A stretch of DNA of 64,000 bases from Anaerolinea sp. (lineage in GTDB: Bacteria > Chloroflexota > Anaerolineae > Anaerolineales > Villigracilaceae), in NCBI GenBank assembly GCA_020723805.1, contig DYID01000006.1:74694-138693 (forward strand). Direction: 5' to 3'. Positions 2,349 to 19,103 of the stretch are shown here, piece after piece. The translations under genes were made by a program, and so were the position numbers. The notes below the pieces were generated by a model. That model did not search any database. It was not told where the DNA came from and saw only the letters and a program-made list of their open reading frames with translations. Position 1 is the stretch's first letter. Each line of letters begins with the position of its first letter.

Positions 2349-3815
2349 ATGGACATCCTCAACTACATCAACGGCGCATGGATCAAACCAAACGCCCCCG
2401 AATACTTCGACGTAATCAACCCCGCCACGGGGCAGGTCATCGCCCGCACGCCGCTCGGCACGAAAGCCGATGTGGACGCGGCGGCGCGCGCGGCGGCGGA
2501 AGCCTTCCCTGGCTGGCGGCGGGTCCCAGTCAACGACCGCGTGCAGTACCTGTTCAAACTCCGCAACCTCCTGCGCGAACACATGGACGAAATCGCCAAA
2601 CTCATCACTGACGAGTGCGGCAAGACCTTCGAAGAATCCCGCGCCGAGATGGTGCGCGCCGTGGAAAACGTGGAAGTCGCCTGCGGGATGCCGCACTTGG
2701 GCAAGGGCGAGTTTGTGGAAGACATCGCCTCAGGCATTGACGAGACGATGATCCGCCAGCCGGTGGGCGTGTGCGCCACGATTGCGCCCTTCAACTTCCC
2801 CGGCATGATTCCCTTCTGGTACCTGCCCTACGCCCTCGCGGCGGGCAACACCTACATCGTCAAGCCTTCGGAAAAAGTGCCGATGACCATGCAGTACATC
2901 TTCAAACTCATCGAGCAGGTCGGTTTCCCGAAGGGCGTGATCAACCTAGTCAACGGCGCGAAGGAGGCGGTGGACGGCATTCTTGAGCATCCGACCATCC
3001 GCGCGATTACCTTCGTCGGTTCGACCAATGTGGCGAAGTACATCTACGCCACTGCCGCGGCGCACGGCAAGCGCGTACAGGCGCAGGGCGGGGCGAAGAA
3101 TCCCGTCATCATTTTGCCCGATGCCGATATGGAGATGGCGACGAAGATCGTCGCCGATTCCGCCTTCGGGTGCGCGGGGCAGCGCTGCCTGGCAGTTTCC
3201 CTCGCTGTGACGGTTGCCGAGGCGCGCAACACCTTCACCGAGTTGATCTGCGACGCCGCCTCCTCGCGCGTGGTCGGCTACGGCATGGACGCGGGCGTGC
3301 AGATGGGACCGGTCATCAATCAGGCGAGTAAAACGCGCATCGAGCAGTTGATCGGCATCGGGTCCGAGGGAGGCGCAAAGGTCTGCGTGGACGGGCGCGG
3401 GACGGTGGTCAAAGGCTACGAAAAAGGCTCCTTCGTCCGCCCGACGGTCATCGCCGATGTTCAGCCCGGAAGCGAACTCTGGAAGACGGAGGTCTTCGGT
3501 CCCGTGCTGGGGCTGATGCACGTCAACACCATCGAAGAGGCGATTGCGCTGGCGAACAGTCACATGTACGGCAATCAGGCGAGCCTGTTCACATCGAGCG
3601 GGGCGGCGGCGCGCAAGTTCAAGTACGAGGTCGAGGCGGGCAACATCGGCATCAACATCGGGGTTGCCGCGCCGATGGCGTTCTTCCCCTTCAGCGGCTG
3701 GAAGGACAGTTTCTTCGGCGACATGCACGGTCAAAGCATGGACGCGGTGGAGTTCTTCACGCAGAAGAAAGTGGTGGTGGAGCGCTGGCCCCGCGAGTGG
3801 ACGAGGAAGTTTTAA
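2349..3815 (+). CDS. mmsA: CoA-acylating (methyl)malonate-semialdehyde dehydrogenase
   Basis: [28 protein letters not shown] (catalytic Cys), EVFGP and [12 protein letters not shown] are typical of MmsA/IolA. Confidence 0.88.
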
Positions 3816-3884
3816 TTTGGTAATTGGTAAATGGTAATTACCACTTGCCAATTACCAATTACCATTTACTACTCACCAATCACC
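3816..3884. repeat. Heptamer-periodic inverted-repeat element (TAATTGG arm + CCAATTA arm), empty form
   Basis: tttggtaattggtaaatggtaatt followed by accacttgccaattaccaattaccatttac; starts immediately after the mmsA stop. Confidence 0.8.
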
Positions 3885-3899
3885 ATCTCTTGAGGAATT

Positions 3900-5255
3900 A
3901 TGACCTACGACAACGCACTCTCTTACGCAAACACTTGGCTCGACATCATCAAACAGGAGCGCTTCCCCGACGAGGCGCAAGCCAAATGGATCATCAACGA
4001 ATCCAAACACAACTTCGCCGAACACTTCAACCGCGGCTGGCTGGAATACCGCAAGTCGGTGACGGAGGCGGGCGACTGGGCGTCGGTGGAATGGTCGGGC
4101 AATGGCTCGGTCTTCACCGACGTGCTGGGGCGCAAATACATTGACTGGCTGGGCGGCTACGGCATGATGGACCTCGGCTGGGTTCATCCCGAAGTAGTCG
4201 AGGCGGTCATCGCGCAGGCAAAGCGCAGTCCCATGCCCTCGCAGGAATTGATTGACCCGCTGCGCGGCGTGCTTGCCAAACTTATGGCGGAAATCACGCC
4301 GGGCGATTTGAAGTACTCGTGGTTCGCCGCCAGCGGCACCGAAGCCATCGAAGCCGCCATCAAAATTGCCAAACTCTACACGGGCAAATCGGCGTTTATT
4401 GTGGCGGTCAAGGGCTTTCACGGCAAGACAATGGGCTCGCTCTCGATGATGGGCAAAGCCGATTACCGCGAACGCATGGGCGCGCTCTATGGCGGGCAGG
4501 TTTATCACGTGCCATTCGGCGATGCGGAGGCGGTGGAACGGCAGCTTGACATCTGCGAGAAGGTCGGCATCGGCGTGGCGGCGGTCATCTTCGAACCGAT
4601 TCAGGGCGAGGCGGGCGCGATTGTCCCGCCGGATGACTTCTGGTCCCGCATCCGCACCGCGACGAAGAAGCACGGGGTTTTGTTGATTGCGGATGAAGTG
4701 CAGACGGGTCTGGGGCGGACGGGGAAACTGTGGGGCGTGAATCACTGGGATGTCGTCCCCGACATCATCGCCACCGCCAAATCGCTCGGCGGCGGGGTGA
4801 TGCCCATCAGTGCGGTGACCACCACCGAGGAAATCTTCCAGCCGATGATGTACCCGAATCCGTTCATGCACACCACGACGACCGGCGGCGGCGCGTTAGC
4901 CTGCTCTGCCGCCATTGCCGCCATCCGCGTCACGCTTCGCGACCGACTTTGGGAGGGCGCGGCGGCGAAGGGCAGTTACCTCATCGAAAAAGTGAGCGAC
5001 CTGGCGGAGGAGTTTCCGCAAATCTACGAGAAGGTGACCGGCAAAGGCTTGCTCATCGGTCAGCACTTCCGTTCGCCGGCGCTCGGTTACAAGGTGGCGG
5101 CGGAGTTGTTCAAGCGCGGCGTGCTGGTGGCTGGCACGCTCACCAGTTCGCAAACCATCCGCATCGAGCCGCCGCTCATCATCACGCAGGCAGAAATTGA
5201 CGAAGGTTTGAACCGCCTGCGCGATGCGGTCGGCGCAGTGGCAAAGACATTGTGA
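3900..5255 (+). CDS. patA: Putrescine aminotransferase (class III PLP)
   Basis: The N-terminus (HFNRGWLEYRKSVT, DWLGGYG, SQELIDPLR) resembles PatA/YgjG; FHGKT, DEVQTG and the PLP lysine in AKSLGGG are present. Confidence 0.75.
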   Translation: MTYDNALSYANTWLDIIKQERFPDEAQAKWIINESKHNFAEHFNRGWLEYRKSVTEAGDWASVEWSGNGSVFTDVLGRKYIDWLGGYGMMDLGWVHPEVVEAVIAQAKRSPMPSQELIDPLRGVLAKLMAEITPGDLKYSWFAASGTEAIEAAIKIAKLYTGKSAFIVAVKGFHGKTMGSLSMMGKADYRERMGALYGGQVYHVPFGDAEAVERQLDICEKVGIGVAAVIFEPIQGEAGAIVPPDDFWSRIRTATKKHGVLLIADEVQTGLGRTGKLWGVNHWDVVPDIIATAKSLGGGVMPISAVTTTEEIFQPMMYPNPFMHTTTTGGGALACSAAIAAIRVTLRDRLWEGAAAKGSYLIEKVSDLAEEFPQIYEKVTGKGLLIGQHFRSPALGYKVAAELFKRGVLVAGTLTSSQTIRIEPPLIITQAEIDEGLNRLRDAVGAVAKTL

Positions 5256-5284
5256 CCCTCGCCCCTCATCCGAGGGGATGAGGG
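5256..5284. repeat. REP-like hairpin
   Basis: CCCTCATCC-GAGG-GGATGAGGG directly after the stop codon. Confidence 0.55.
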
Positions 5285-5289
5285 TAAAA

Positions 5290-5319
5290 TGTAGGATAAG
5301 TCTATAGACTTGTCCTACA
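5290..5319. repeat. GTAG-family REP-like palindrome
   Basis: TGTAGGATAAGTC-TATA-GACTTGTCCTACA. Confidence 0.65.
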
Positions 5320-5368
5320 ACATGTTCTACAAAAGACAGTATCAAATCCTATCCTGAGGAGAAGATAG

Positions 5369-6487
5369 ATGCGAAGTGAGTTTGCAGTCGAACTACGGGA
5401 TGTCGTAAAACAATTTGTCACACCAGAGGGGAATCTTTTGAACGCCGTGGATCATGTCACCATGCAGATCAAGAACGGCGAGTTCTTCTCGATGCTGGGT
5501 TCGTCGGGCTGCGGCAAGACCACCTCCCTGCGCATGATCGCCGGCTTCGAGTGGCCCACCGCGGGGGAGGTGTATATCGAGGGCAAGCCAATGGGGCATA
5601 CGCCGCCCTTCCAGCGCAAGGTCAATACCGTGTTTCAAAACTATGCGCTCTTCCAGCACATGACGGTCTATCAAAACGTGGCGTTTGGGTTGGAGATGGA
5701 AGGAGCGGACAAGAGCGAAATCGAAAAGCGCGTCAAACGCGCCCTGGAGATGGTTCAACTGACCGGCATGGAGCGGCGTAAACCCCGTCAGCTCTCCGGC
5801 GGGCAGCAGCAGCGCGTGGCGGTGGCGCGGGCGCTGGTCAAACTGCCGGATGTGCTGCTCCTCGACGAACCGCTTGGCGCGCTGGACTTGAAACTGCGCA
5901 AGGAAATGCAGTTGGAACTCAAGGCGCTCCAGAAGGAAGTTGGCATCACTTTTATCTATGTCACCCACGACCAGGAAGAAGCCCTCACCATGTCGGACCG
6001 CATTGCGGTGATGAGCAAGGGCAAGGTCATGCAAATGGGCACGCCGGTCGAAATCTACGAGCGCCCCGCCAACAAGTTCGTGGCAGACTTTATCGGCGAG
6101 TCGAATTTTCTGGATGGAAAGATCAAGTCCATTTCGGCGGATGAAGCGAGCGTCTTTGTCCCTGCCCTGAACGCCGAGTTGAGCGGTGTGCCGATGTCGA
6201 AGGATTTGGTCAACGGCGAAGAAGTCGTCATTTCCATCCGCCCGGAGAAGATCCGCATCGTGGAGTACGACGACGGGAAGGAAGGAATTTTCCGCGCAAA
6301 AATCATCAACTCCATCTACATCGGTTCCGATACGCATGTGTATCTCGACTGCAACGGGGTGCGGTTGAAGGTCATGGAACAGAACCGCATTTCCCGCCTC
6401 GACCCGTTCTCCTTCTATCACAAAGATCAGCAGGTCGGTGTGTACCTGATGCCGGAAAACACGCTGGTCTTGAAAAAGGAGGCGTGA
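5369..6487 (+). CDS. potA: Polyamine ABC transporter ATP-binding subunit
   Basis: Walker [24 protein letters not shown]-terminal TOBE region. Confidence 0.9.
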
Positions 6488-6488
6488 C

Positions 6489-7412
6489 ATGCTTCAACGG
6501 CTTCGTGAAAACAAAGCCTGGCAGGGCACACTGCTGGCGCTTCCGACTACCTTGTGGCTGTTTGTTCTGTTGGTGATTCCGCTTTTCCTCACGCTGGTTG
6601 TGAGTTTTGGCAGGCGCAGCCCGGATGGCGGCGTAATTTACGGCTTCTCCTTTCACAACTACCTTCGGTTATTGGGCTACAGCACCGATTGTCCGGGCGG
6701 GCAAGCCGCCTGCTTCGATCCGCTCTATGCCGGCATTTTGTGGCGCTCGCTCACGCTGGCATTCTGGACGACGGTGATTGTCATTTTGCTCGCCTACCCG
6801 CTGGCGTACTTCATTGCCCGCTCGCACCCCCGCCGCCGCAATACCTTCCTCATGCTGGTGCTCGTACCGCTGTGGACCAACTTCGTCATCCGCGTCTATG
6901 CCTGGATGATGCTCCTGCGCGAGCAGGGCGTCATCAATGGCGTGCTGGGCTGGATTGCGGCACAGTTCGGCATTCCTTTTCAGCCGCTTCAAATGCTCTA
7001 CACGCCCGGCGCGGTGCTGGTCGGCATGGTGTACGAGTTTCTGCCGTTCATGATTTTGCCCATTTTCACTTCGCTGGAAAAAATCGAACTGCCGCTGTAT
7101 GAAGCCGCCGCCGATTTGGGAGCAAACCCGTTCCGCACCTTCCTGCGTGTGACGCTGCCGCTCTCCATGCCCGGCGTGGTGGCAGGCACCATCCTGGTCT
7201 TCATCCCGGTCATGGGGACGTTCATCGTTTCGGACTTGCTGGGCGGCAAACAGGTGATTTTGGTGGGCAACCTCATCCAGAATCAATTCCTTTCGGCGCG
7301 CGACCCAACCTTCGGTTCTGCCGCCTCGTTGATCCTGATGATCATGACCCTCATCGTGACCTACTTCTACACCCGTAAATTCGGATTCGGAGAGGAGATT
7401 ATCGCGGCATGA
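6489..7412 (+). CDS. potB: Polyamine ABC transporter permease
   Basis: EAA loop (EAAADLGA); PotB-type [15 protein letters not shown]. Confidence 0.88.
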
Positions 7413-8290
7413 ACCCCTACCGCCGGCATCCTTTCATCCGTGTTGCCACCGTTCTGGTGTACCTCTTCCTGTACACGCCCATTGTCGTGCTGGTGTTGTA
7501 TGCCTTCAATGCCTCGCGCACGAATATTCTGTTCGAGGGTTTCATTCCTTCGTTTGGACCTCTCCAAACCAGCGGCAGTCTCGTCACCCAAAGCCCGTGC
7601 GGACCCTTTCACTGGTTTTGCGAACTCTCACGCAACCGCGAGGTCGGCGCGGCGGCGCGCAACACGCTGACCATTGCCTTCATCTCCACCCTGACCTCCA
7701 CGGTCATCGGCACGATGGCGGCGCTCGCGCTCCAGCGCTATAACTTTCGGATGAAACCCTTCTCGCAAATTTTCCTCTATATCCCCATCGTCATCCCTGA
7801 AATCGTCATGGGAATTGGAATACTGACCCTCTTCAGCCAGCTATTCGGCGTTTTGAACAGCGCTCTTGGCTTGGCAGGCGATTCCCGCCTCTCCCTCGGA
7901 CTGGGGACGGTCATCGTTTCCCACATCGCCTTCAGCGTCCCCTTTGTGACTTTGGTGGTGCAGGCGCGTTTGCAGGGGTTCGATAAATCCTACGAGGAAG
8001 CCGCCATGGATTTGGGCGCAAATGAACTGGTCACGTTTTGGCGCGTCACCTTCCCGATGATTTTGCCCGGTGTGCTTTCGGGCGCACTGCTGGCTTTTAC
8101 CCTTTCGCTGGATGACTTCGTCATCACCTTCTTTACCACCGGTCCCGGCGCGACCACCCTGCCGATTTATGTGTATGGTCTCTTGCGGCGCATCATCACT
8201 CCGCAGGTCAACGCCCTGTCCACCATCTGGATTGCCATCGTGTTGACGGCGGTCATTCTCCTGCAACGACTGCAAAACCGCGAAGCCTGA
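7409..8290 (+). CDS. potC: Polyamine ABC transporter permease
   Basis: EEAAMDLGA and [11 protein letters not shown]; overlaps the potB stop (ATGA). Confidence 0.88.
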
Positions 8291-8360
8291 AACTTGTTGT
8301 GAAAACCACGGCGAAGTCCGTGTGTTTCAAAAACCAAACAAATCTTCTAAGGAGGAAGAG

Positions 8361-9500
8361 ATGAGCAAAAACCTGTTGTTCAAACTGACGGTGCTTCTGA
8401 CCATGATGAGTCTCGCGCTGGCAGCCTGCGGAGGTGGAGGCGGCGATGAAACTACCCAGAAGGTCACATCGTCTGGCTTTGTCTGCCCCGAGCCGGAGCA
8501 GAAAATGGAGGTTTCTTCTCAGGAGTTGAACCTCTTTGTGTGGACTGAATACATTCCAGCCGAATGGAAGGAATGTTTCGAATTGGTTTATGGTGTCAAA
8601 ATCAATCACGATGAGTATTCCAGCAATGAGGAAATGTACGCCAAGCTTTCAGCAGGCGGCACCAACTACGACCTCGTCCAGCCGACCGATTACATCGTTG
8701 GTTTAATGATCCGTCAGGGCATGCTCCAGAAACTGGATCATGGCAAACTCCCCATGTCCAGTTTCGACCCGAACTATATGGACCTGCCCTTCGACCCGGG
8801 CAACGAATACACCATCCCCTATCAGGCTGGCACGGACGCCATCATCTACAATGCCGACAAGGTGGAGAATCCTCCCAAGTCCTTTGCCGACTTGTGGAAT
8901 CCGGAATACGCCGGGCGCATGGTCTTCCTCGATGACTCGCGCGTCATCATCGGCATGACCCTGCTGACTCTCGGCTACGATGTCAACACCACCGACCCCG
9001 CCCAGTTGGAGGAAGCCAAGGTTAAACTGGCGGAACTGGTGCCGAACGTCAAACTCTTCGACAGCGACAGCCCCAAGACTGCCCTCATCGCCGGCGACGT
9101 GGACCTCGGCATCACCTGGACGGGCGAAGCCTTTCTTGCCGCTCAGGAAAACCCTGCCTTCACCTACGTCTATCCGACTGAAGGGGCAATCCTCTGGCAG
9201 GACAACTGGGCGATTCCTGTCGGCGCTCCGCATCTGGATGCCGCTTACGCCTGGATTAACTACACCATGCAGGGCAACATGTTCTGGATGATGCTGCGCG
9301 ATTTCCCCTACATCAATCCCAGTCTCGCCGCGCTGGAATATGCCAAAGAAAACCAGCCTGACCTCTATAATGCCTACATGGGTTCGCCCATTACCAACGT
9401 CCCGCAAGAGGCGATTGACGCGGGTCACCGCATTGAGGATGTCGGTGACGCCACGCCGCTCTACGACCGAATTTGGACGGAAGTCAAGGGCGGGGAATAA
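8361..9500 (+). CDS. potD: Spermidine/putrescine-binding lipoprotein
   Basis: AGGAGG RBS before ATG 8361; lipobox LAAC; WTEY, YSSNEEMYAK and WQDNWAIP are PotD/PotF motifs. Confidence 0.85.
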   Translation: MSKNLLFKLTVLLTMMSLALAACGGGGGDETTQKVTSSGFVCPEPEQKMEVSSQELNLFVWTEYIPAEWKECFELVYGVKINHDEYSSNEEMYAKLSAGGTNYDLVQPTDYIVGLMIRQGMLQKLDHGKLPMSSFDPNYMDLPFDPGNEYTIPYQAGTDAIIYNADKVENPPKSFADLWNPEYAGRMVFLDDSRVIIGMTLLTLGYDVNTTDPAQLEEAKVKLAELVPNVKLFDSDSPKTALIAGDVDLGITWTGEAFLAAQENPAFTYVYPTEGAILWQDNWAIPVGAPHLDAAYAWINYTMQGNMFWMMLRDFPYINPSLAALEYAKENQPDLYNAYMGSPITNVPQEAIDAGHRIEDVGDATPLYDRIWTEVKGGE

Positions 9501-9519
9501 TCGCCGCTTCTGACCTATC

Positions 9520-9557
9520 AAGCCGCCGATTGCGCCGCAGTCGGCGGCTTTTTGTTT
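9520..9557 (+). terminator. Intrinsic terminator after potD
   Basis: AAGCCGCCGA...TCGGCGGCTT stem followed by TTTGTTT. Confidence 0.8.
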
Positions 9558-9619
9558 CAGTCACCTGCGAAGGAAAATCAATGCGGTGGTTTTTATATTG
9601 ACGAAAAAGAATAAAAATA

Positions 9620-9648
9620 TTGAAATTTTTGAAAAATAGTGATAAAAT
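9620..9648 (+). promoter_or_regulatory. Sigma70-type promoter, probably giving a leaderless transcript
   Basis: TTGAAA(9620)-17 nt-TAAAAT(9643); ATG 9655 lies 6 nt downstream and there is no SD. Confidence 0.55.
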
Positions 9649-9654
9649 ATGGCT

Positions 9655-10122
9655 ATGGAAGAAAAAACTGCTATTCAAACAACCCAGCCGTTAGACGACA
9701 TTGACCGCGCCGTCATCGAAGCCATGCGCAAGGACGGGCGGACGGCGTTCTCTCAAATTGCCGAACAGCTCAACGTCTCGCCGGGCATGATTCGCCTGCG
9801 CTACAACCGCCTGGTCGAACTCGGTTACCTCAAGGTGGTCGCCGTCACCAATCCTTTGATGATGGGCAAGCGCACCATGGCAATGATCGGCGTGCGCACT
9901 GACGGAAGCAAAATGCTCGAGGTGGCGAATCAATTAAGCGACTTTGATGAAGTCGTTTATGTCGTTGTTGTCAGCGGCAGGTATGACTTGATGATCGAGG
10001 TCTTTTGCCGCGACCACGAAGACCTGCTCAACTTCCTCACCGAAAAACTTGCCAAAGTGGATGGCGTCCGCGAGACGGAATCGTTCATGCATCTGAAGAT
10101 TGTGAAGGAGATTTACTTTTAG
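9655..10122 (+). CDS. Lrp/AsnC family transcriptional regulator
   Basis: LDDIDRAVI..MRKDGRTAFSQIAEQLNVS HTH; C-terminal SGRYDL RAM domain; alternative start at 9649. Confidence 0.9.
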   Translation: MEEKTAIQTTQPLDDIDRAVIEAMRKDGRTAFSQIAEQLNVSPGMIRLRYNRLVELGYLKVVAVTNPLMMGKRTMAMIGVRTDGSKMLEVANQLSDFDEVVYVVVVSGRYDLMIEVFCRDHEDLLNFLTEKLAKVDGVRETESFMHLKIVKEIYF

Positions 10123-10283: not shown

Positions 10284-11510
10284 ATGAAAGTATTACTCGT
10301 AGGAGTGGGGGGAGTAGGGGAGGCAATTGCGGTGCTTGCCAAGCCGCAGCCCTGGCTGGAGCAGATGGTTTTGTGTGATTACAACAAGGCACGCGCTGAA
10401 GAGGTGCAGAAAAAACTGGGCGGCGATGTGAGCCGCTTCCCCGTCGAGTTTGTTGACGCGGGACAGCAGGAGATGGTCGAGGCGTTGGCGCGCAAGTATG
10501 GCGTGGACCTCATCATGAACGCTGTGGATCCCATCTTCAACGAAAAAATCTTCGACGCCGCTTACAACGTCGGCGCGACCTACATGGACATGGCGATGAC
10601 CCTCTCCAAGCCGCACCCGACCGATCCCTTCCGCAAACCGGGCGTTAAACTGGGCGATTATCAATTCGCCAAATCGGCTGATTGGGAAAAGAAGGGACTG
10701 CTGGCGCTGGTGGGCATCGGCGTGGAACCCGGCATGGTGGACGTGTTTGCCCGTTACGCGCAGGATCACCTTTTTGACGAAATCGAGGAGATGGGCGTGC
10801 GCGATGGCGCCAACCTGGAAATTGAGGGCTACGAATTCGCTCCCAACTTTTCGATTTGGACGACCATCGAAGAGTGCCTCAACCCGCCTGTAATTTGGGA
10901 AAAGGACAAGGGCTGGTACACCACCGAGCCGTTCTCTGAGCCTGAAGTGTTCGAATTCCCCGAAGGGATTGGCAAGATCGAAGTGGTCAACGTGGAGCAT
11001 GAGGAAGTGCTGCTCATGCCGCGCTGGATCAACACCAAACGCGTCACCTTCAAATACGGCTTGGGCGAGAAGTTCATCAACGTGCTGAAAACGCTCAAGA
11101 TGCTGGGCTTGGACAATAAGGAGAAAATCAACGTCAAGGGCGTGATGGTTGCGCCGCGCGACGTGGTCGCTGCCTGCCTGCCCGACCCCGCCCACCTCGG
11201 CGACAAGATGAAGGGCAAGACCTGTGCGGGATTGTGGGTGAGGGGAAAGAAAGACGGAAAGATGAAAGAGGTGTATTTGTATCAGGTCACAGACAACGAG
11301 GAATCCATGAAGCGCTGGGGATGTCAGGCGGTTGTCTCGCAGACGGCGTTCAGCGCAGTCATTGCGATGGAACTGCTGGAGCAGGGTGTGTGGAAAGGGA
11401 GCGGTGTGCTGGGTCCCGAAGCCTTTCCGTCCGAGCCGTTCATGGAGCGGATGGAAAAGTATGGCTTCCCATATGGCGTCAGAGAGATGACAAAGGAAGC
11501 CGCTGTTTGA
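10284..11510 (+). CDS. Saccharopine dehydrogenase family oxidoreductase (carboxyspermidine-dehydrogenase-like)
   Basis: GxGGVG Rossmann motif, YMDMA, GVEPG, EHEEV and VAPRDVV. Confidence 0.8.
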   Translation: MKVLLVGVGGVGEAIAVLAKPQPWLEQMVLCDYNKARAEEVQKKLGGDVSRFPVEFVDAGQQEMVEALARKYGVDLIMNAVDPIFNEKIFDAAYNVGATYMDMAMTLSKPHPTDPFRKPGVKLGDYQFAKSADWEKKGLLALVGIGVEPGMVDVFARYAQDHLFDEIEEMGVRDGANLEIEGYEFAPNFSIWTTIEECLNPPVIWEKDKGWYTTEPFSEPEVFEFPEGIGKIEVVNVEHEEVLLMPRWINTKRVTFKYGLGEKFINVLKTLKMLGLDNKEKINVKGVMVAPRDVVAACLPDPAHLGDKMKGKTCAGLWVRGKKDGKMKEVYLYQVTDNEESMKRWGCQAVVSQTAFSAVIAMELLEQGVWKGSGVLGPEAFPSEPFMERMEKYGFPYGVREMTKEAAV

Positions 11511-11550: not shown

Positions 11551-11640
11551 ATAACATTACTGGGGTGATGGTCTCGTCTTGCACGGGGAGGAAAAGGTAT
11601 TTCGGACGGGATCAGGCATCGGGTCGGAAAGAAGCGAAGT

Positions 11641-11675: not shown

Positions 11676-11700
11676 TTTTGTCTGTTTCGGCAAGGTCAGG

Positions 11701-11729
11701 TTGTGATTCCCTCATCCCGCCTGTATAAT
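11701..11729 (+). promoter_or_regulatory. Sigma70-type promoter upstream of AOR1
   Basis: TTGTGA-17 nt-TATAAT, followed by a GGAGGAGG RBS before ATG 11761. Confidence 0.6.
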
Positions 11730-11760
11730 TGAAAAAACTCGATACTTGGAGGAGGTCGCC

Positions 11761-13662
11761 ATGCCATACGGTTACAATGGCAAAATTCTGCATGTGGATT
11801 TGACGAAGGGTGAATTGACGGTGGAGGAGCCGCCCGAGTCGTTCTATCGCAAGTATTTGGGCGGGAGCGCGATGGGTATGCATTACATCCTGCGCGACAT
11901 GCCCAAAGGCGCCGACCCGCTGGGACCTGAAAATGTGCTGACGCTGTTTACAGGCGTGACGACGGGCGCGCCGATCTCGGGTCAGAGCCGCCTGAACGCC
12001 AACGCCAAATCGCCCATCAGCGGCGGCATCGGCGACTCGCAAAGCGGCGGGTTTTTCCCTGCCGAGTTGAAGTTCGCAGGCTTCGACGGTATTGTGATTA
12101 AAGGCAAGTCGCCCAAGCCTGTGTATCTGGCGATTGTGGATGGCAAAGCCGAACTGCGCGACGCCTCGCATTTGATGGGAAAGATCACGGGGGAGGTGGA
12201 CGATATCCTTCACAAGGAAGTGGATCCGAAAGCCGAAATCCTTCAGCATGGTCCCGCCGCCGAAAAGGGCGTGCTGTTCTCGTCGCTGGTGAGCATGTCC
12301 AATCGCCACAACGGACGCACGGGCATGGGCTTGGTGATGGCTTCCAAGAATCTCAAGGCGGTTGTCGTGCGCGGGACGAAGAAGGTGGAGGTCGCCGACC
12401 CCAAGGCGCTGACCGAATTGAACCGCATCGGTCCCAAAGCCATCCCCGAAAACGGCGACATGGACGGGCTGGCAAAGTTCGGCACGGCGGTTGTGGTGTT
12501 GTTCAACAATACAATCGGCTGTCTGCCGACCCGTAACTACAACGAAGGTCAGTTCGAGGGGTGTGAAGCCATCAGCGGCGAGAAGATGGCAGAGACCATC
12601 CTCAAGGAACGTGATACTTGCTACGCCTGCGTGGTCAAGTGCAAGCGCGTGGTTGAGGTCAAGGAAGGGGCGTACAAGGTGGACCCGCGCTATGGCGGTC
12701 CCGAATACGAAACGCTCGGCACGTTCGGCTCGTATTGCGGCGTGAGCGATTTAGCGGCGGTCTCGCTGGCGAATCAAATCTGCAACGAGTACGGCGTGGA
12801 TACCATCGCCTGCGGCGCGACGATTGCCTTTGCGATGGAGTGCTACGAAAAGGGCATCATCACTAAAGAGCAGACCGACGGCATCGAATTGAAATTCGGT
12901 GACGCCGACGCAATGCTGGCGGCGTTGAACAAAATCGTCAAAGGCGAGGGCGAGCTCGGCAAAACGCTCGGCATGGGGTCGGAACGCGCGGCGAAGAAGT
13001 GGGGCAACGGCGCGGACGAGTGCCTCATCACGGTCAAGGGTGCAGAAGCGCCCGCGCACATGCCTCAGGCGAAGCGTTCGCTCGGTCTCATCTATGCGGT
13101 CAATCCGTTCGGCGCGGATCACCAATCCAGCGAACACGACCCCTACTACGAAGAAGGCGTTGGAGACTTCAACCTAAACCGCCTCAAGCAAATCGGACTT
13201 GGTTCGCCTCAGCCCGCCTACAGCCTCACGGAGGAAAAAGTCCGCTTCGCTTACGAGACCGAGGTCTTCTACTCCATGCTCGACTCGCTCGAACTCTGTC
13301 AGTTTGTCTGGGGTCCCACGTGGACGCTCTACGACGGCGAACAGACCGCCGCCATGCTGCGCGCGGTCACAGGCTGGGATGTAACCCTCGACGAATTGAT
13401 GGAAGTCGGACGCCGCCGCCTGAACCTCTTCCGCGTGTTCAACGCCCGCGAGGGATTCGGGCGCAAGGACGACAAACTGCCGAAGAAGTTCTTCAAACAA
13501 TTGCAGGGGACGGGTCCCACTGCTGGCTTCGCGCTGACTCACGAAGAGATTGATTCCGCCATAGACGCCTACTACAAGATGGCAGGCTGGACCGCCGACG
13601 GCGTGCCGACCGCCGAGACGCTCAAGAAACACGGCGTCGAGTGGGCGGCGGAGTATCTCTAG
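11761..13662 (+). CDS. aor: Aldehyde:ferredoxin oxidoreductase family protein (W/Mo-bis-pterin, AOR1)
   Basis: GYNGKILHVDL, AKSP..GG, GLVMASKNLKA, CYACVVKC [4Fe-4S] motif, PEYETL, CNEYGVD, FNAREG, DKLPKKF. Confidence 0.88.
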   Translation: MPYGYNGKILHVDLTKGELTVEEPPESFYRKYLGGSAMGMHYILRDMPKGADPLGPENVLTLFTGVTTGAPISGQSRLNANAKSPISGGIGDSQSGGFFPAELKFAGFDGIVIKGKSPKPVYLAIVDGKAELRDASHLMGKITGEVDDILHKEVDPKAEILQHGPAAEKGVLFSSLVSMSNRHNGRTGMGLVMASKNLKAVVVRGTKKVEVADPKALTELNRIGPKAIPENGDMDGLAKFGTAVVVLFNNTIGCLPTRNYNEGQFEGCEAISGEKMAETILKERDTCYACVVKCKRVVEVKEGAYKVDPRYGGPEYETLGTFGSYCGVSDLAAVSLANQICNEYGVDTIACGATIAFAMECYEKGIITKEQTDGIELKFGDADAMLAALNKIVKGEGELGKTLGMGSERAAKKWGNGADECLITVKGAEAPAHMPQAKRSLGLIYAVNPFGADHQSSEHDPYYEEGVGDFNLNRLKQIGLGSPQPAYSLTEEKVRFAYETEVFYSMLDSLELCQFVWGPTWTLYDGEQTAAMLRAVTGWDVTLDELMEVGRRRLNLFRVFNAREGFGRKDDKLPKKFFKQLQGTGPTAGFALTHEEIDSAIDAYYKMAGWTADGVPTAETLKKHGVEWAAEYL

Positions 13663-13683
13663 TAATTGGTAAATGGTAATTGG
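13662..13683. repeat. TAATTGG heptamer arm (left arm of the filled element)
   Basis: gtaattggtaaatggtaattgg; 20 nt are identical to 3820-3839. Confidence 0.8.
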
Positions 13684-13737
13684 GGATGAGATGACGTGTC
13701 TCGTCCCCAATTTGTCAATCGCATTGGATGAATTCAA

Positions 13738-14535
13738 ATGAATCGACCCTCGATAGACTCCCCCTTTCGCTCGTTGATTGGAATGGGCGAAATACAGGCG
13801 GTATACAAACAGGGGATGGCATCGAAACTTTCCAATGCTTTCGGGAGCCTGCTTTTTTTGCTGGCGGGCGGTTACGTTCTTTATTACGGCTTGAACTACA
13901 AGAATGTTTATCCCGACGTGGCAGCGACGAACACACCGTTTATCGTTGGATTTGCCTTGATCTTGATCGGGGCGGGTGGATACTGGGCGTGGACTCTCTT
14001 TTCACGTTGGAATGAGGTGGCTGTTCTTTACCAAAATGGCTTTGCCCATTTCAACGGACGCGACGTGACGAGCTTCCAATGGAATGACATTACTTCCATC
14101 ACTGCGAAAGTCACCCGCATGACGGTGTATCATTTCATTCCTGCTGGCACGATGCGAAAATATATTTTCGAAAGCCCTTCGGCGCGCTTGAAATTGGACG
14201 GGACGCTTTCAGGCGTGGACGAATTGGTGAACCAAATTCGCCAGAATGTTTTTCCAATTATGGTAAACCGCCTGTCACAGGAATTGAACGCTGGCAAGAC
14301 ACTCTCGTTTGGACCAATTTCAATCAGCAGAACCGAAGGCATTCGATCGAAAAATAAAAAATATGCCTGGGCGGATGTGGCGGGGCTGAGAGTGGTCAAC
14401 GGCATTCTGGAAGTCGTTCCAAAGAAGAAAGGATTGTTTGGCAGAATTAGTTCCGACATCGGTTTCATTCCCAATCTCGACATTCTTATTGCGCTCTCGA
14501 CAGACATGATCCGACAACACAATCAAAATTCATGA
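13738..14535 (+). CDS. Hypothetical membrane protein (two N-terminal TM helices plus a PH-like soluble domain; possibly DUF6585-like)
   Basis: 265-codon ORF that is AT-richer than its neighbours and has no recognisable catalytic motif. Confidence 0.6.
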   Translation: MNRPSIDSPFRSLIGMGEIQAVYKQGMASKLSNAFGSLLFLLAGGYVLYYGLNYKNVYPDVAATNTPFIVGFALILIGAGGYWAWTLFSRWNEVAVLYQNGFAHFNGRDVTSFQWNDITSITAKVTRMTVYHFIPAGTMRKYIFESPSARLKLDGTLSGVDELVNQIRQNVFPIMVNRLSQELNAGKTLSFGPISISRTEGIRSKNKKYAWADVAGLRVVNGILEVVPKKKGLFGRISSDIGFIPNLDILIALSTDMIRQHNQNS

Positions 14536-14541
14536 GTCTTG

Positions 14542-14568
14542 AATTACCAATTACCAATTACCAATTAC
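14542..14568. repeat. CCAATTA heptamer arm (right arm of the filled element)
   Basis: aattaccaattaccaattaccaattac; its reverse complement matches 13662-13683 at 21/22. Confidence 0.8.
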
Positions 14569-14586
14569 TTCCCAAGAAAGAACCCC

Positions 14587-15870
14587 ATGACCAACTCCCT
14601 CTACACCGAAAACTTCCCCCACATGACTCCCGCGTGGAGCCGCATCTTCAACTTCGTCGCCGACCGCGCCGAAGGCTCCTACATCTACACCGACGACGGA
14701 CGCAAACTGCTCGACTTCACCTGCGGCATCGGCGTGACGAACACGGGTCACTGTCACCCGAAAGTCGTCGAAGCGATTCGCGAGCAGGCGGGGAACTTTA
14801 TCCACGCGCAGGCGAATCTCGTCATCCACAAGCCGATGCTGCAACTCATCGAAGAACTGCGCAAGATCGTCCCGCCTTCGATTGACAGTTTCTTCTTCGC
14901 CAACTCAGGCGCGGAGGCGCTGGAAAACGCGGTCAAGATTGCGAAGGTGGCGACGGGACGCCCGAACGTCATCGTCTTCAGCGGCTCGTTCCACGGGCGG
15001 ACTCATGCCACCATGGCGCTGACCACGTCCAAGACGATTTACCGCGCGGGCTTTGCGCCGCTCATGGCGGGCGTGTACGTCGCGCCGTTCCCCTATGCCT
15101 TCCAACTCAAAATGACGGAAGAGGAAGCCAGCCAATACGCGCTGGAGCAGTTGGAGCATCTGCTCGCCTCGCAGACCGCGCCGAAGGAAACCGCCGCCAT
15201 CATCCTTGAAACCGTTTTGGGGGAAGGCGGCTACATCGTCCCGCCCGCCTCGTTCATGAAGGGTCTGCGCGAGATTTGCGACAAGCACGGTATCTTGCTG
15301 GTCCTCGACGAAGTCCAATCGGGCTTTGGTCGCACGGGCAAATGGTTCGCCTTCGAGCATTTCGGCATCGTGCCAGACATCATGACGGTTGCGAAAGGAA
15401 TCGCTTCGGGCATGCCGCTCTCAGGCGTGTTCACCCGCACCGAAATCATGAAGAAACTCGACACAGGCTCCATCGGCGGGACGTATGGCGGGAACGCCGT
15501 CGCCTGCGCCGCGGGAGTCGCCACCATCCGCGCGATGCGGGAAGAGAAGATGCTCGAAAACGCCGCCGAGCGCGGCATCCAACTGATGACGGGACTCCGC
15601 AAATTGCAGGAGGAATATCCGCAAATTGGCGACGTGCGCGGACTGGGGCTGATGGTCGGCACCGAGTTTGTGGTGGATGGAAGCCAGGTAAAAGCCAAGC
15701 CGCTCGTCAAGGAAATCATCCACAAAGCGGAAGAGAAAGGCTTGCTCCTGCTTTCCTGCGGCACCTACGACAACACCGTCCGCTGGATCCCGCCGCTGAA
15801 TGTGACGAGCGGGCAGATCAATGATGGGCTGAATATTTTTAGCGAAGCGTTGAAGGAAACCATAAAATAA
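14587..15870 (+). CDS. gabT: 4-aminobutyrate aminotransferase-like class III aminotransferase
   Basis: DFTCGIGVTNTGH, NSGAEALENAVK, FHGRT, DEVQSGFGRTG, AKGIASG and GGTYGGN; start moved past the repeat to ATG 14587. Confidence 0.7.
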   Translation: MTNSLYTENFPHMTPAWSRIFNFVADRAEGSYIYTDDGRKLLDFTCGIGVTNTGHCHPKVVEAIREQAGNFIHAQANLVIHKPMLQLIEELRKIVPPSIDSFFFANSGAEALENAVKIAKVATGRPNVIVFSGSFHGRTHATMALTTSKTIYRAGFAPLMAGVYVAPFPYAFQLKMTEEEASQYALEQLEHLLASQTAPKETAAIILETVLGEGGYIVPPASFMKGLREICDKHGILLVLDEVQSGFGRTGKWFAFEHFGIVPDIMTVAKGIASGMPLSGVFTRTEIMKKLDTGSIGGTYGGNAVACAAGVATIRAMREEKMLENAAERGIQLMTGLRKLQEEYPQIGDVRGLGLMVGTEFVVDGSQVKAKPLVKEIIHKAEEKGLLLLSCGTYDNTVRWIPPLNVTSGQINDGLNIFSEALKETIK

Positions 15871-15918
15871 TCAAAGGTCAAAAGTCAAAAGTCCGACGTT
15901 CGACCTTTGACTTTCGAC
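15871..15918. repeat. Heptamer-periodic inverted-repeat element (TCAAAAG type), empty form
   Basis: tcaaagg tcaaaag tcaaaag / gacctttgactttcgac; begins right after the stop codon. Confidence 0.8.
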
Positions 15919-15932
15919 AAATCATCATCATC

Positions 15933-17291
15933 ATGTCAAACACTCTCGATAGAAACAAACTCACCCAACTCCTCCAGCAAGAAGAACAACTCTTCCACAA
16001 AACCCATCCCAAATCCTACGAACTCTACCAGCGGGCGCGCAAGTCGCTGCATGGCGGCGTGCCGATGCTGTGGATGATCCGCTGGGCAGGTTCGTTTCCC
16101 GTCTTCGTCAAAGAGGCGAAAGGCGCGCGCTTCACCGACGTGGACGGCAACTCCTACATTGACTTCTGCCTCGGCGACACGGGCGCGATGACAGGTCACA
16201 GCCCCGACGCGACCATTGAAGCCATCAATGAGCAGATTCAAAAAGGCATCACGCTCATGCTCCCCTATGAGGATGTCATCTGGGTCGGCGAAGAACTCCA
16301 GCGCCGTTTCGGTCTGCCCTATTGGCAGTTCGCCCTCACCGCCACCGACGCCAACCGCTTCGCCCTGCGCATGGCGCGCCTCATCACGGGTCGTCCCAAA
16401 ATCCTCGTCTTCAACTACTGCTATCACGGCTCGGTGGACGAGACCTTCATCTCGCTCGACGAAGAAGGCACGCCCATTCCGCGCCCCAACAACATGGGTC
16501 CGCAAATTGACCCGCGCCTCACCAGCAAGGTCATCGAGTTCAACGACGTTGCCGCGCTCGAAACCGCCCTCTCCGCCCGCGATGTCGCCGCGGTCCTCGC
16601 TGAACCCGCCATGACCAACATCGGCATCATCCACCCCGAACCCGGCTACCACGACGCGCTGCGGGAATTGACTCGCAAGTACGGGACCTATCTCATCATT
16701 GACGAGACTCATACCATCTGCGCGGGTCCCGGCGGATACACCGCCTCATTCGGACTTCAGCCTGATTTCCTGACCATCGGCAAGCCCCTCGCTGGAGGCG
16801 TCCCCGCCGCGGTCTATGGCTTCACCGAAGAAGTGAGCCGCGCCTTCGCCGCCAAACTCGCCATCAACGACGCCGACGTGGGCGGCATCGGCGGGACTCT
16901 GGCGGGCAACGCCCTCTCGGTCGCCGCGATGAAAGCCACCTTGCAAAACGTCCTGACCGAGGACTTTTACAAAAAAGCCATCGCCTTGCAGGAAAAATTC
17001 ACCGCAGGCGTGGAGGGCGTCATCAAGGAATTCAACCTGCCGTGGATTGTCAAACGTCTCGGCAACCGCTCCGAATACTGGTTCCGTCCCACGCCTCCGC
17101 GCAACGGTGGGGAAGCGCACGCCGCCGTGGACCCCGAACTCGACCGCTACATGCACCTCTTCGCCCTCAACCGCGGCATCCTCATGACCCCCTTCCACAA
17201 CATGGCGCTCATCTCCGCCGACACCACCGAAGCGGACGTGGATTACCACACGAAGGTGTTCCGCGAGGCGGTGGCGAGTTTGTTTGGATAG
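15933..17291 (+). CDS. Class III aminotransferase, glutamate-1-semialdehyde aminomutase-like subgroup, substrate unknown
   Basis: DVDGNSYIDFCLGD, YHG, IDETHT, PLP lysine in GKPLAGG, GGTLAGN. Confidence 0.75.
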   Translation: MSNTLDRNKLTQLLQQEEQLFHKTHPKSYELYQRARKSLHGGVPMLWMIRWAGSFPVFVKEAKGARFTDVDGNSYIDFCLGDTGAMTGHSPDATIEAINEQIQKGITLMLPYEDVIWVGEELQRRFGLPYWQFALTATDANRFALRMARLITGRPKILVFNYCYHGSVDETFISLDEEGTPIPRPNNMGPQIDPRLTSKVIEFNDVAALETALSARDVAAVLAEPAMTNIGIIHPEPGYHDALRELTRKYGTYLIIDETHTICAGPGGYTASFGLQPDFLTIGKPLAGGVPAAVYGFTEEVSRAFAAKLAINDADVGGIGGTLAGNALSVAAMKATLQNVLTEDFYKKAIALQEKFTAGVEGVIKEFNLPWIVKRLGNRSEYWFRPTPPRNGGEAHAAVDPELDRYMHLFALNRGILMTPFHNMALISADTTEADVDYHTKVFREAVASLFG

Positions 17292-17292
17292 A

Positions 17293-17359
17293 GTAGGTCG
17301 AAGGTCAAGAGTCGAAAGTCTACCTTGTGACCTTCGACCTTCGACCTTCGACTTTTGAC
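17293..17359. repeat. Heptamer-periodic inverted-repeat element (TCGAAGG type), empty form
   Basis: gtcgaaggtcaagagtcgaaagtc / gaccttcgaccttcgaccttcgacttttgac. Confidence 0.8.
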
Positions 17360-17375
17360 TCGTTTGGAGAGAAAC

Positions 17376-19103
17376 ATGACAGAACACACATCCCAAATCT
17401 GGCGCATCAACGCACGCACGCGTGAACTCAAGCGCGAACCCGTCCCCGCCTCCTGGCAGCGGCTTGGCGGGCGCGGACTCATCGCCCGCATCCTGCTCGA
17501 CGAAGTGGACGCGACGACCGCCCCCCTCGGCGCGGGGAACAAACTCATCTTCGCGCCCGGTCTGCTCGTCGGTCACATGCTCTCGTCCACCGACCGCATC
17601 TCCATCGGCGGCAAGTCTCCGCTCACGGGCGGAGTCAAGGAAGCCAACGCAGGCGGGCGGACTGGCTTGCACATGGCGACGATGGGCATCCACGCCCTCA
17701 TCATCGAAGACCAGCCTGCAGACGATTCGTTGTGGGTACTGCATCTCTCACTCAACGGCGCAAAATGGGAAAAAGCGGATGACTTGACAGGCTTGGGCGT
17801 GTACGCTTCCGCCGAAAAATTGCTCGCGCGTTACGGCGATAAAGTCGCCATCGCGCTTATCGGTCCCGGCGGCGAGATGCGGATGAAGTCGGCGGGCATC
17901 CAGAATCTCGACAAGGACAAAATCCCCTCGCGCATCGCGGCGCGCGGCGGACTCGGCGCGGTGATGGGCTCGAAGCGGATCAAAGCCATCGTGTTCGATA
18001 ATGCCGGTGGGCAGAAGCCGCCCATCGTGAGTCCCGAAGCGTTCAAGTCCGCGCAGAAGGATTACACCAAAGCGCTGATGGATCATCCGCAGACGAAAAC
18101 GTATCACGATTACGGCACCGCCGCGATGACGCAATTGACCCAGCGGTTTGCCGCGATCCCTGTCCGCAACTTTTCGCGCGGCACATTCGACGACGTGGAA
18201 AAGATCGGCGGGGAGGCGCTGCGCGAGTTTACGCTCACGCGCGGCAAACCATCCGATCCCTCGCACGCCTGCATGGCGGGATGCACCATCAAATGCTCGA
18301 ACGTGTTCGGCGGAGAGGATGGCAAGGTCATCGTTTCGCCGCTCGAATATGAAACCATCGGCTTGATGGGCTCGAACCTCGACATCAACTCGCTCGACAG
18401 CATCGGGCGGCTGAATTGGCAGGTCAACGACCTGGGACTCGACTCGATTGAAGTCGGCGCGGCGCTCGGCGTCGCGGCGGAGGCGGGCTTGATGAAGTGG
18501 GGGAGCGAAGGAGATGCACTGAGGCTGATCAATGAGATTCGTAACGGCACGGAACTGGGGCGCATCCTCGGCGACGGCGCGGTTGCCACAGGGAAGAAGT
18601 ACAACATCGAGCGCGTCCCCGCTGTGAAGGGACAGGCGATGTCCGCCTATGAACCGCGCTCCATCAAAGGCACGGGCGTGACCTATGCCACCACGCCGCA
18701 GGGCGCCGACCATACCTGCGGACTCACCATCCGCGCCCAAATCAACCACCTTGACCCGAACGTGCAAATCGAGGTCTCGCGCAACGCGCAGTTCAACATG
18801 GCGGGTTACGACACCCTCGGCGCGTGTATCTTCGCGGGCTTCGGCTACGCCGCGACTCCCGATGGTGTGGTGAAACGTCTGCTCGCGGCGCGCTACGGCT
18901 GGGACGACCTGCCCGACAACATCCTCCAGGAACTCGGCAAACAGACCATCAAAATGGAGCGCGAGTTCAACCGCCGCGCAGGGTTCACCGCCAAAGACGA
19001 CCGTCTCCCCGCATGGATGACGAAAGAGCCGCTGCCCGAAACCAACCACGTCTTCGACGTGAGCGAAGACGCGCTCGACCACATCTTCGATGGGATCGAA
19101 TAA
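17376..19103 (+). CDS. aor: Aldehyde:ferredoxin oxidoreductase family protein (AOR2)
   Basis: GGRGL, GKSPLTGGVKEANAGG, AARGGLGAVMGSKRIKA, HACMAGCTIKC, LEYET, DLGLDSI, FNRRAG. Confidence 0.88.
   Translation: MTEHTSQIWRINARTRELKREPVPASWQRLGGRGLIARILLDEVDATTAPLGAGNKLIFAPGLLVGHMLSSTDRISIGGKSPLTGGVKEANAGGRTGLHMATMGIHALIIEDQPADDSLWVLHLSLNGAKWEKADDLTGLGVYASAEKLLARYGDKVAIALIGPGGEMRMKSAGIQNLDKDKIPSRIAARGGLGAVMGSKRIKAIVFDNAGGQKPPIVSPEAFKSAQKDYTKALMDHPQTKTYHDYGTAAMTQLTQRFAAIPVRNFSRGTFDDVEKIGGEALREFTLTRGKPSDPSHACMAGCTIKCSNVFGGEDGKVIVSPLEYETIGLMGSNLDINSLDSIGRLNWQVNDLGLDSIEVGAALGVAAEAGLMKWGSEGDALRLINEIRNGTELGRILGDGAVATGKKYNIERVPAVKGQAMSAYEPRSIKGTGVTYATTPQGADHTCGLTIRAQINHLDPNVQIEVSRNAQFNMAGYDTLGACIFAGFGYAATPDGVVKRLLAARYGWDDLPDNILQELGKQTIKMEREFNRRAGFTAKDDRLPAWMTKEPLPETNHVFDVSEDALDHIFDGIE

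Follow-up and report, generated by a model that had tools for sequence, protein, structure and literature searches.

The closest described systems for the breakdown of polyamines in bacteria are the PatA/YgjG-PatD/YdcW-GabT or PuuE-GabD route of Escherichia coli and the KauB-BauA-BauC/MmsA route of Pseudomonas. Both follow the same logic: a class III aminotransferase turns the amine into an aminoaldehyde, this is converted into an ω-amino acid, and transamination of the latter gives a semialdehyde that is finally oxidised. Here we describe a gene cluster at positions 2349-19103 of a 64,000-nucleotide stretch of Anaerolinea sp. DNA (the window; positions 74,694 to 138,693 of contig DYID01000006.1, assembly GCA_020723805.1), which belongs to a 143-kb contig (C26); the genome, of 3.69 Mb, is 97% complete. 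The cluster has PatA-like (AT1), GabT-like (AT2) and MmsA homologues in common with the E. coli and Pseudomonas routes, but it lacks an aldehyde dehydrogenase (ALDH) of the PatD, KauB or GabD type and contains two aldehyde:ferredoxin oxidoreductases of the tungsto/molybdopterin family (AOR1 and AOR2) instead, so that the electrons would reach ferredoxin and not NAD(P). The comparative genomics presented below suggests that the locus probably serves polyamine uptake and catabolism with the AORs as aldehyde oxidases; the specific spermidine-cleavage step, for which we propose a dehydrogenase (SDH) related to carboxyspermidine and carboxynorspermidine dehydrogenases (CASDH and CANSDH), and the assignment of substrates to each AOR are put forward with less confidence. 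The host is most likely an anaerobic or oxygen-avoiding member of the Anaerolineales and the locus its polyamine regulon.

An earlier note made from the sequence of the window had listed PotABCD, a PatA-like and a GabT-like enzyme, a third aminotransferase (AT3), MmsA, a saccharopine-dehydrogenase-like enzyme, an Lrp regulator and two AORs as co-oriented genes, with MmsA as the only ALDH and no PatD/GabD-type enzyme, and had considered a polyamine route of this kind as one not known to have been described. The gene set was confirmed by the list of open reading frames (ORFs) and by Pfam and NCBIfam scans, which added a DUF6585 gene that the note had left unmentioned: every long ORF between 2349 and 19103 is on the + strand, and the 13 genes are intact and co-oriented. 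The statement on ALDHs extends to the whole of contig C26, where MmsA is the sole ALDH-family gene and no PatD- or GabD-type ALDH was found, either in the window or in the rest of the contig. As for novelty, open-access papers and bioRxiv preprints yielded no account of polyamine catabolism that is linked to AORs or uses a CASDH-like enzyme, and in the same literature none of the known AORs (1AOR, 1B25, 8C0Z) was found tied to polyamine catabolism. A 2022 review distinguishes five bacterial polyamine catabolic routes, namely γ-glutamylation, aminotransferase, direct oxidation, SpdH and acetylation (PMC9397018); ferredoxin-linked enzymes and enzymes of the saccharopine-dehydrogenase type are both absent from it, and the amine oxidase of its direct-oxidation route needs O2.

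With respect to individual enzymes, SDH would do the same job as the FAD- and haem-containing SpdH of P. aeruginosa, the conversion of spermidine into an amine and an aminoaldehyde for an aldehyde-oxidising enzyme (PMC9397018), but it belongs to an unrelated family with a nicotinamide-dependent Rossmann fold and needs neither flavin nor haem. Its resemblance is to CASDH and CANSDH (EC 1.5.1.43; 8DEB, 8H4Z, 4INA, 4RL6), with which it shares the fold, the domain pair, the His-Glu-Glu triad and an equivalent of Glu188 (PMC10413350), while it differs from them by Asp32, an altered amine-site motif, the lack of Ser144 and of a decarboxylase partner, and a catabolic neighbourhood. When compared with the tungsten AORs (P. 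furiosus AOR, 1AOR, and FOR, 1B25; Aromatoleum aromaticum AOR, 8C0Z), AOR1 aligns over the full length and shares the CxxCxxxC motif, whereas AOR2 is much more divergent. The P. furiosus FOR reportedly accepts C4-C6 semialdehydes and dialdehydes.

The strongest single evidence that the AORs of the window may replace PatD/GabD-type enzymes comes from the gene content of a related locus, L054. Its gene order is MmsA-AT1-PotABCD-SDH-ALDH-ALDH-ALDH-AT2, and its proteins are close to those of the window (MmsA 82%, AT1 77%, SDH 76% and AT2 85% identity). The three ALDHs fill the stretch between SDH and AT2, where the window has AOR1, AT3 and AOR2. Two of them, at 684 and 686 bits, exceed the cut-off of 615 of the aminobutyraldehyde-dehydrogenase model PRK13473; the third is classed here simply as an ALDH. 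With MmsA included, the ALDHs of L054 amount to four, and the aldehydes predicted for full spermidine catabolism are also four: 3-aminopropanal, 4-aminobutanal, malonate semialdehyde and succinate semialdehyde. The genome of the window itself contains two ALDH loci besides MmsA, a generic ALDH on contig C31 and a P5C-dehydrogenase-like one on contig C48, both of which stay under the model cut-offs (437 versus 615 for PRK13473, 355 versus 646 for SSADH). At the C31 locus (G000:C31:128423-130682) the generic ALDH is followed by a second ALDH-like domain in one open frame that runs past the contig end, an unusual tandem fusion.

Conservation of the neighbourhood was analysed with SDH as the anchor. 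AOR2 had been dropped from this role because its orthologues outside the family of the window stand in sugar-type ABC transporter, SDR and GntR contexts, which implies that the broad AOR2 family is not tied to polyamines. The SDH census covered 301 sampled genomes of the class and then one genome per GTDB species, using an alignment of these proteins. SDH orthologues (67-87% identity) were present in 25 of the 301 class genomes, distributed over nine sampled families, and in families f11, f14, f20, f43, f49, f57 and f61 SDH is flanked by combinations of AT1 (64-75%), PotABCD, an AOR1-type AOR (57-61%), AT2 (59-61%) and an Lrp-type regulator. Orthologues of AT1 (64-78% identity, in several families) and AT2 (59-94%) are linked to SDH, those of MmsA (79-93%) occupy the same position in relatives, and the Lrp/AsnC gene is kept directly upstream of SDH. 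The module AT1-PotABCD-SDH-AOR1-AT2, with or without AT3-AOR2 and MmsA, could be seen in the window's own family, in sampled families f11, f14, f43, f49, f57 and f61, and also in numerous metagenome-assembled genomes with Anaerolineae names; in near relatives the order reads PotBCD-Lrp-SDH-AOR1-AT2-(AT3)-AOR2-GT4. The scan of GTDB species yielded more than 597 SDH loci. Anaerolineae are numerous among the best 80 of these, which at 60-64% identity extend to Streptomyces, Nonomuraea, Nakamurella, Phytohabitans, Thermoleophilia, one spirochaete and two Anoxynatronum species (Clostridia). Judged by its recurrence in many genomes of several families, the gene arrangement is not a product of chance.

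A closer inspection of the SDH loci revealed several types of context. Type A is AT1-Pot-SDH-AOR1-AT2; type B (L074, L084) is AT1-Pot-SDH-AT2-AT3-AOR2 without AOR1, AOR2 being here the only AOR of the cluster; and type C holds both AORs, as in the window. In type D (L054, L069) the same order is kept with NAD(P)-dependent ALDHs between SDH and AT2. Type E, which appears in some Actinomycetota, consists of ALDH-PotDABC-SDH, sometimes with a gene for a DAO-type FAD oxidoreductase directly upstream of SDH, a divergent Lrp regulator and an aminotransferase. Type F is that of Anoxynatronum (sigma-54 activator-SDH-4Fe-4S subunit-AOR-SSF symporter-arginase/agmatinase-family gene), and type G, with an uninformative context, includes the majority of the loci in Streptomyces and about a third of those in Chloroflexota. 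AORs and ALDHs were tallied at 58 Chloroflexota and 31 Actinomycetota SDH loci, which were not de-duplicated, an AOR being counted when it lay within 10 kb of SDH. The two enzyme classes are close to mutually exclusive beside SDH: among the Chloroflexota loci an AOR was present in 35 of 58 and a PatD-type ALDH in 3 of 58, with both in one locus only, and among the Actinomycetota loci none had an AOR (0 of 31) and eight had an ALDH (8 of 31). Where an ALDH is present in Actinomycetota, the locus often includes PotDABC-like genes and an Lrp regulator, together with a class III aminotransferase and a DAO-type FAD-dependent oxidoreductase.

Some of these SDH loci show features of their own. In Anoxynatronum buryatiense and A. 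sibiricum (L102 260-12983 and L104) a sigma-54 activator, the SDH orthologue (63%), a 4Fe-4S dicluster protein, an AOR, an SSF symporter and an arginase/agmatinase-family enzyme are accompanied by a Cu_amine_oxidN1-domain protein, a second SSF symporter and a PNPOx-like protein; Anoxynatronum is a cultured anaerobic alkaliphile and a tractable carrier. Many of the Streptomyces SDH loci (L091-L122) share a divergent TetR, a LysR, a LysE-type exporter, an MFS transporter and a cNMP-binding protein, and no polyamine genes were found in this conserved neighbourhood; the role of SDH in Streptomyces without polyamine context may differ. One SDH orthologue (G056:C12:103194-104403) is split into two overlapping frames (residues 1-162 and 160-404), for which a frameshift in a pseudogene or a fault in the assembly is the probable cause.

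Both AORs of the window contain the full-length domain pair. AOR1 matches AFOR_N with 226 bits and AFOR_C with 427 bits, and the AFOR_C match of AOR2 reaches model position 349 of 385. The two proteins are 27% identical to each other. The nearest PDB entries of AOR1 are 9MQX, 9G7J, 1AOR and 8C0Z (355-382 bits), while AOR2, at 224 bits, is far more divergent. AOR1 presents the cluster motif C292-x2-C295-x3-C299 together with a distal Cys in LELCQF; AOR2 presents C299, C303 and C307 and a Cys in DTLGAC, so that four Cys are present with an unusual spacing, and its orthologues share with it CxxxCxxxC in the place of the canonical CxxCxxxC. Homologues of AOR2 at 83-94% identity occur by the hundreds in metagenomes, and orthologues at ≥57% identity in about 20 of the 301 class genomes.

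In the AOR tree, read with rows L124 and L132 set aside (very long branches, probably wrong-frame translations), the cluster-linked AOR2 copies form one clade (21 rows, SH-aLRT 97) that is sister to unlinked copies from sugar contexts. Of the SDH-linked AOR1-type copies, 27 lie in a large clade of 28 rows, and the others are found at four further places amid unlinked ones. With this interspersion, a dedicated aminoaldehyde subfamily for AOR1 is not supported. At least four AOR lineages stand beside SDH, that is, the AOR1 type in several placements, the AOR2 type, the G272 type and the Anoxynatronum type, the last of these accompanied by a 4Fe-4S subunit and an arginase/agmatinase-family gene. 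We read this as repeated recruitment of whichever AOR was available, which speaks for a genuine functional coupling, SDH or the aminotransferases making an aldehyde that the AOR removes, and against a narrow specialisation of AOR1. AT3 always accompanies AOR2 in the loci compared, which suggests that the pair handles one branch of the pathway; a role of AT3 in β-alanine transamination would be our guess. At L055 (14873-16700, equivalent to L001 ~8100-9490; GCA_013112685, JABFGC010000002.1) AT3 was recovered as two separate tblastn pieces, the public annotation has no gene there, and AT3 may be disrupted in this genome.

The phylogeny of both AORs and the conservation of the neighbourhood had been proposed in the earlier note as checks on its idea. 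The tree gathered the linked AOR2 copies in a single clade and left those of AOR1 scattered among unlinked ones; the adjacency of SDH, AOR and aminotransferase extends across Anaerolineae families, and the link of AOR2 is confined to one subclade. The idea itself, the replacement of PatD/GabD-type ALDHs by AORs in a polyamine route, is supported at the level of sequence comparison by conserved adjacency, independent recruitment, the near-exclusivity of AOR and ALDH, and the swap in L054.

The enzyme that would start the route resembles CASDH and differs from it at several sites. The only NCBIfam match of SDH is NF043000 (carboxynorspermidine synthase), with 199 bits against an equivalog cut-off of 800, which is not reached, and its nearest PDB entries are 4INA, 4RL6 and 8DEB (B. 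fragilis CASDH, BfCASDH). Residues H239-E240-E241 and E197 of SDH align with the catalytic H228-E229-E230 and E188 of BfCASDH and are invariant across 13 orthologues; according to the structural study of CASDH, neither saccharopine dehydrogenase nor lysine 6-dehydrogenase has the His-Glu-Glu triad (PMC10413350). At the end of strand β2, SDH reads VLCD32YN where 8DEB, 4RL6 and 4INA read ASRT, and Asp32 is invariant in the orthologues. In Rossmann folds an Asp after strand β2 is typical of NAD-type sites and Ser-Arg of NADP-type sites. The sequence thus indicates a cofactor site of the NAD type, without the Ser-Arg of the NADPH-type site of CASDH. Val152 is placed at the position of CASDH Ser144, a residue of the proposed proton relay, and a family-specific invariant PHPTDP segment stands instead of the acidic amine-site motif (E107), a suggested binding site for the distal amine of putrescine or agmatine (PMC13683441). 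No match to nspC, the carboxy(nor)spermidine decarboxylase (TIGR01047), was found in the 97%-complete genome, which has two SpeE-type aminopropyltransferase genes, and SDH would consequently not be needed for making spermidine. SDH appears to share the chemistry of CASDH, the interconversion of a secondary amine with an amine and an aldehyde, but to lie outside CASDH proper, and its setting appears to be catabolic. By analogy with the reverse CASDH reaction, it would convert spermidine, NAD+ and H2O into putrescine and 3-aminopropanal; 1,3-diaminopropane and 4-aminobutanal, or a direct deamination of diamines, are possible alternatives. In a wider and more tentative proposal, which we would not yet favour over its negation, genes of the SDH type might encode an undescribed O2-independent, NAD-linked dehydrogenase of polyamines (secondary amines), with which many bacteria would begin the catabolism of spermidine, with interchangeable sinks for the aldehydes, NAD-dependent PatD-type enzymes in aerobes and tungsten-type, ferredoxin-linked AORs in anaerobes.

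In the pathway that we propose, PotABCD would import spermidine (and putrescine), and SDH, working in the oxidative direction with NAD+, would cleave the spermidine into either of the two pairs of products given above. The PatA-like AT1 would convert the diamine into its aminoaldehyde. AOR1 and/or AOR2 would then oxidise the aminoaldehydes irreversibly to β-alanine and 4-aminobutyrate (GABA), with the electrons passing to a ferredoxin encoded elsewhere, and this irreversible oxidation would pull the unfavourable dehydrogenase step forward. AT2 and AT3 would produce succinate semialdehyde from GABA and malonate semialdehyde from β-alanine; MmsA would convert the latter semialdehyde into acetyl-CoA as the last step of the C3 branch, and an AOR, possibly AOR2, would oxidise succinate semialdehyde to succinate. 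In this scenario the AORs would hold the place taken in aerobes by the NAD(P)-dependent ALDHs of the PatD/KauB and GabD types.

Decaying biomass, sludge, sediments and guts are rich in polyamines. If the proposal is true, polyamine breakdown in anaerobes would yield low-potential electrons, and it would be explained how the Anaerolineae of wastewater and sediments, among other strict or facultative anaerobes, could draw carbon, nitrogen and energy from spermidine. The AOR family, whose natural substrates are mostly unknown, would gain a physiological class of them, the aminoaldehydes and semialdehydes, and a large, highly conserved and unannotated branch of the CASDH family (more than 597 loci, many of them in Streptomyces) would gain a function, as part of a module that spans Streptomyces, other Actinomycetota, Anaerolineae, Clostridia and Spirochaetes. 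The idea can be tested directly, thanks to the exchange of AOR and ALDH among close relatives.

Several observations weigh against a dedicated, AOR-based polyamine route. The PatA-like, GabT-like and PotD-like proteins all fall under their NCBIfam equivalog cut-offs, there is no ferredoxin gene within the cluster, and the generic ALDH on C31 may contribute to the oxidation of aldehydes. AOR1-like genes (53-66% identity) are found in about 186 of the 301 class genomes, against 25 for SDH, and are thus frequent in Anaerolineae without the pathway; AOR1, a member of this common and probably broad-specificity clade, may be a generalist. In other families, AOR2 homologues (57-68%) adjoin sugar-type ABC transporters (Peripla_BP_4, BPD_transp_2), SDRs, GntR regulators and Iso_dh enzymes. 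The SDH loci of type G, about a third of those in Chloroflexota and most of those in Streptomyces, are without polyamine context. Finally, given a terminator-like hairpin after potD and promoter-like sites that are no more frequent than in shuffled sequence, the co-regulation of the cluster is something that we infer. The hairpin, the wide occurrence of AOR1-like genes together with their polyphyly as regards linkage, and the sugar-type contexts of AOR2 would also fit two unrelated neighbours, a PotABCD/PatA/MmsA unit for polyamines or β-alanine and an AOR/aminotransferase unit for general amino-acid fermentation, whose AORs would act on aldehydes derived from 2-oxoacids, as is said to have been proposed for the Pyrococcus AOR, and would have no dedicated role with polyamines. 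We regard this arrangement as quite improbable, since SDH and AOR are adjacent in many families and also in Bacillota, with four AOR lineages involved, a syntenic relative has PatD-type ALDHs in the AOR stretch, AOR and ALDH almost exclude each other beside SDH, and the adjoining aminotransferases are of the ω-amine type (PatA, GabT) and not of the amino-acid:2-oxoglutarate types.

The same architecture might instead serve another amine, such as norspermidine, homospermidine, cadaverine, aminopropylcadaverine or agmatine-derived amines, or a diamine that SDH deaminates directly, in the manner of L-lysine 6-dehydrogenase; what is formed, and what the aminotransferases and AORs do, would then depart from the spermidine scheme. 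The scores of the PotD-, PatA- and GabT-like proteins, which lie under the equivalog cut-offs, leave room for such a substrate, as do the unassigned function of AT3, the SSF symporters and agmatinase-family gene of the Anoxynatronum locus, and an amine-site motif in SDH that is unlike those of CASDH, CANSDH and CAPADH (PMC13683441). We nevertheless find another amine unlikely, because the binding protein is nearer to the spermidine-preferring PotD than to PotF, MmsA suits the C3 (aminopropyl) branch, and the four ALDHs of L054 match the four spermidine-derived aldehydes. AORs are established to catalyse acid reduction in vitro, and the locus could in principle be biosynthetic, with an AOR that reduces β-alanine or GABA at the expense of reduced ferredoxin and an SDH that condenses the aminoaldehyde with putrescine to spermidine or homospermidine, with no decarboxylase involved. 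The CASDH family is normally reductive (PMC10413350), and the lack of nspC would agree with such a condensation. This last possibility is barely credible in view of the NAD-type cofactor site marked by Asp32, the two SpeE-type synthases that the genome already has, the NAD(P)-dependent ALDHs, enzymes of the oxidising direction, in the AOR region of relatives, and the presence in the cluster of an importer, of aminotransferases that resemble PatA and GabT, and of MmsA, a decarboxylating enzyme; a biosynthetic function as a CASDH was rejected on the grounds of Asp32, the ALDHs, the SpeE-type genes and, again, the missing nspC.

The genes of the cluster (Table 1) were identified by Pfam and NCBIfam model scans of the ORFs of the window and by sequence matches to PDB entries.

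Table 1. Features of the cluster in the window, with the model or structure matches on which each is based.
Feature	Positions	Strand	Basis
MmsA, CoA-acylating malonate/methylmalonate-semialdehyde dehydrogenase	2349-3815	+	TIGR01722 556 bits, cut-off 448 (passed)
AT1, PatA/YgjG-like class III aminotransferase	3900-5255	+	NF008570 554 bits; TIGR03372 452 bits
PotABCD-type polyamine ABC importer	5369-9500	+	
PotA	5369-6487	+	TIGR01187 377 bits, cut-off 356 (passed)
PotB	6489-7412	+	BPD_transp_1
PotC	7409-8290	+	BPD_transp_1
PotD-like binding protein	8322-9500	+	22/22 PDB matches are polyamine-binding proteins
Terminator-like hairpin 3' of potD	9520-9550	+	14-bp stem, 9 G-C pairs, T run (consensus scan only)
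Lrp/AsnC-family regulator	9649-10122	+	HTH_AsnC and AsnC_trans_reg domains
SDH, CASDH-like dehydrogenase	10284-11510	+	Sacchrp_dh_NADP and Sacchrp_dh_C
AOR1, canonical-type aldehyde:ferredoxin oxidoreductase, 638 aa	11746-13662	+	Full AFOR_N and AFOR_C
DUF6585 membrane-protein gene	13738-14535	+	PF20226 92 bits
AT2, GabT/PuuE-like ω-aminotransferase	14539-15870	+	E. coli GabT 349 bits, PuuE 344 bits (best PDB)
AT3, PRK07046 (GSA-aminomutase-like) class III aminotransferase	15933-17291	+	NF005453 655 bits, cut-off 425
AOR2, divergent AOR-family enzyme	17355-19103	+	AFOR_N 182 bits, AFOR_C 228 bits

The importer genes form one block, in which an ATPase of the PotA type is followed by two permeases and a polyamine-binding protein. 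The binding protein has its best PDB match in 7XJM (243 bits), followed by E. coli PotD (1POT, 224 bits), with PotF at about 110-125 bits; on the PotD model it scores 233 bits against a cut-off of 582. For AT1, NF008570 is the top model by a wide margin, yet its score remains under the cut-off of 612, and AT2 reaches 419 bits on TIGR00700 (cut-off 507). The best PDB matches of AT3 are 5YKR and 5YKT, both described as 'probable aminotransferase' (476 bits), ahead of GSAMs and β-transaminases, and nothing relevant on 5YKR was found in open-access papers and bioRxiv preprints. The true start of AOR2 is probably at 17376, which gives a protein of 575 residues that matches the orthologues.

The Lrp/AsnC protein is likely the local regulator of the cluster. 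The gaps between the genes for PotD, Lrp, SDH and AOR1 measure 149-236 nt, and promoter-like sites could be seen 5' of the Lrp gene and of AOR1, such sites being no commoner than in shuffled sequence. A single operon is not supported, because of the terminator-like hairpin after potD, which would divide the locus into two or more transcription units, and several gaps of 150-240 nt, and the locus is better described as a series of adjacent units: mmsA-AT1-potABCD; lrp; SDH; AOR1...AOR2. The DUF6585 gene has its stop 4 nt ahead of the start of AT2. In the relatives L001 and L002 it is missing from the position between AOR1 and AT2, where there is nothing or another small ORF, and it is probably outside the pathway; this gap looks like a variable insertion point. 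The gap between AT2 and AT3 holds a long palindromic repeat at 15877-15918, with 17 pairs and GTCGAAAG/GTCAAAAG-like units, which was scored as a minus-strand terminator-like site. Upstream of the cluster are a gene for an Eco57I/TaqI-type restriction-modification methyltransferase (23-1921) and a YnfA/UPF0060 gene (1905-2306), and the first 2 kb of the window have a GC content of 47.5% versus about 58%, so the DNA there may have been acquired.

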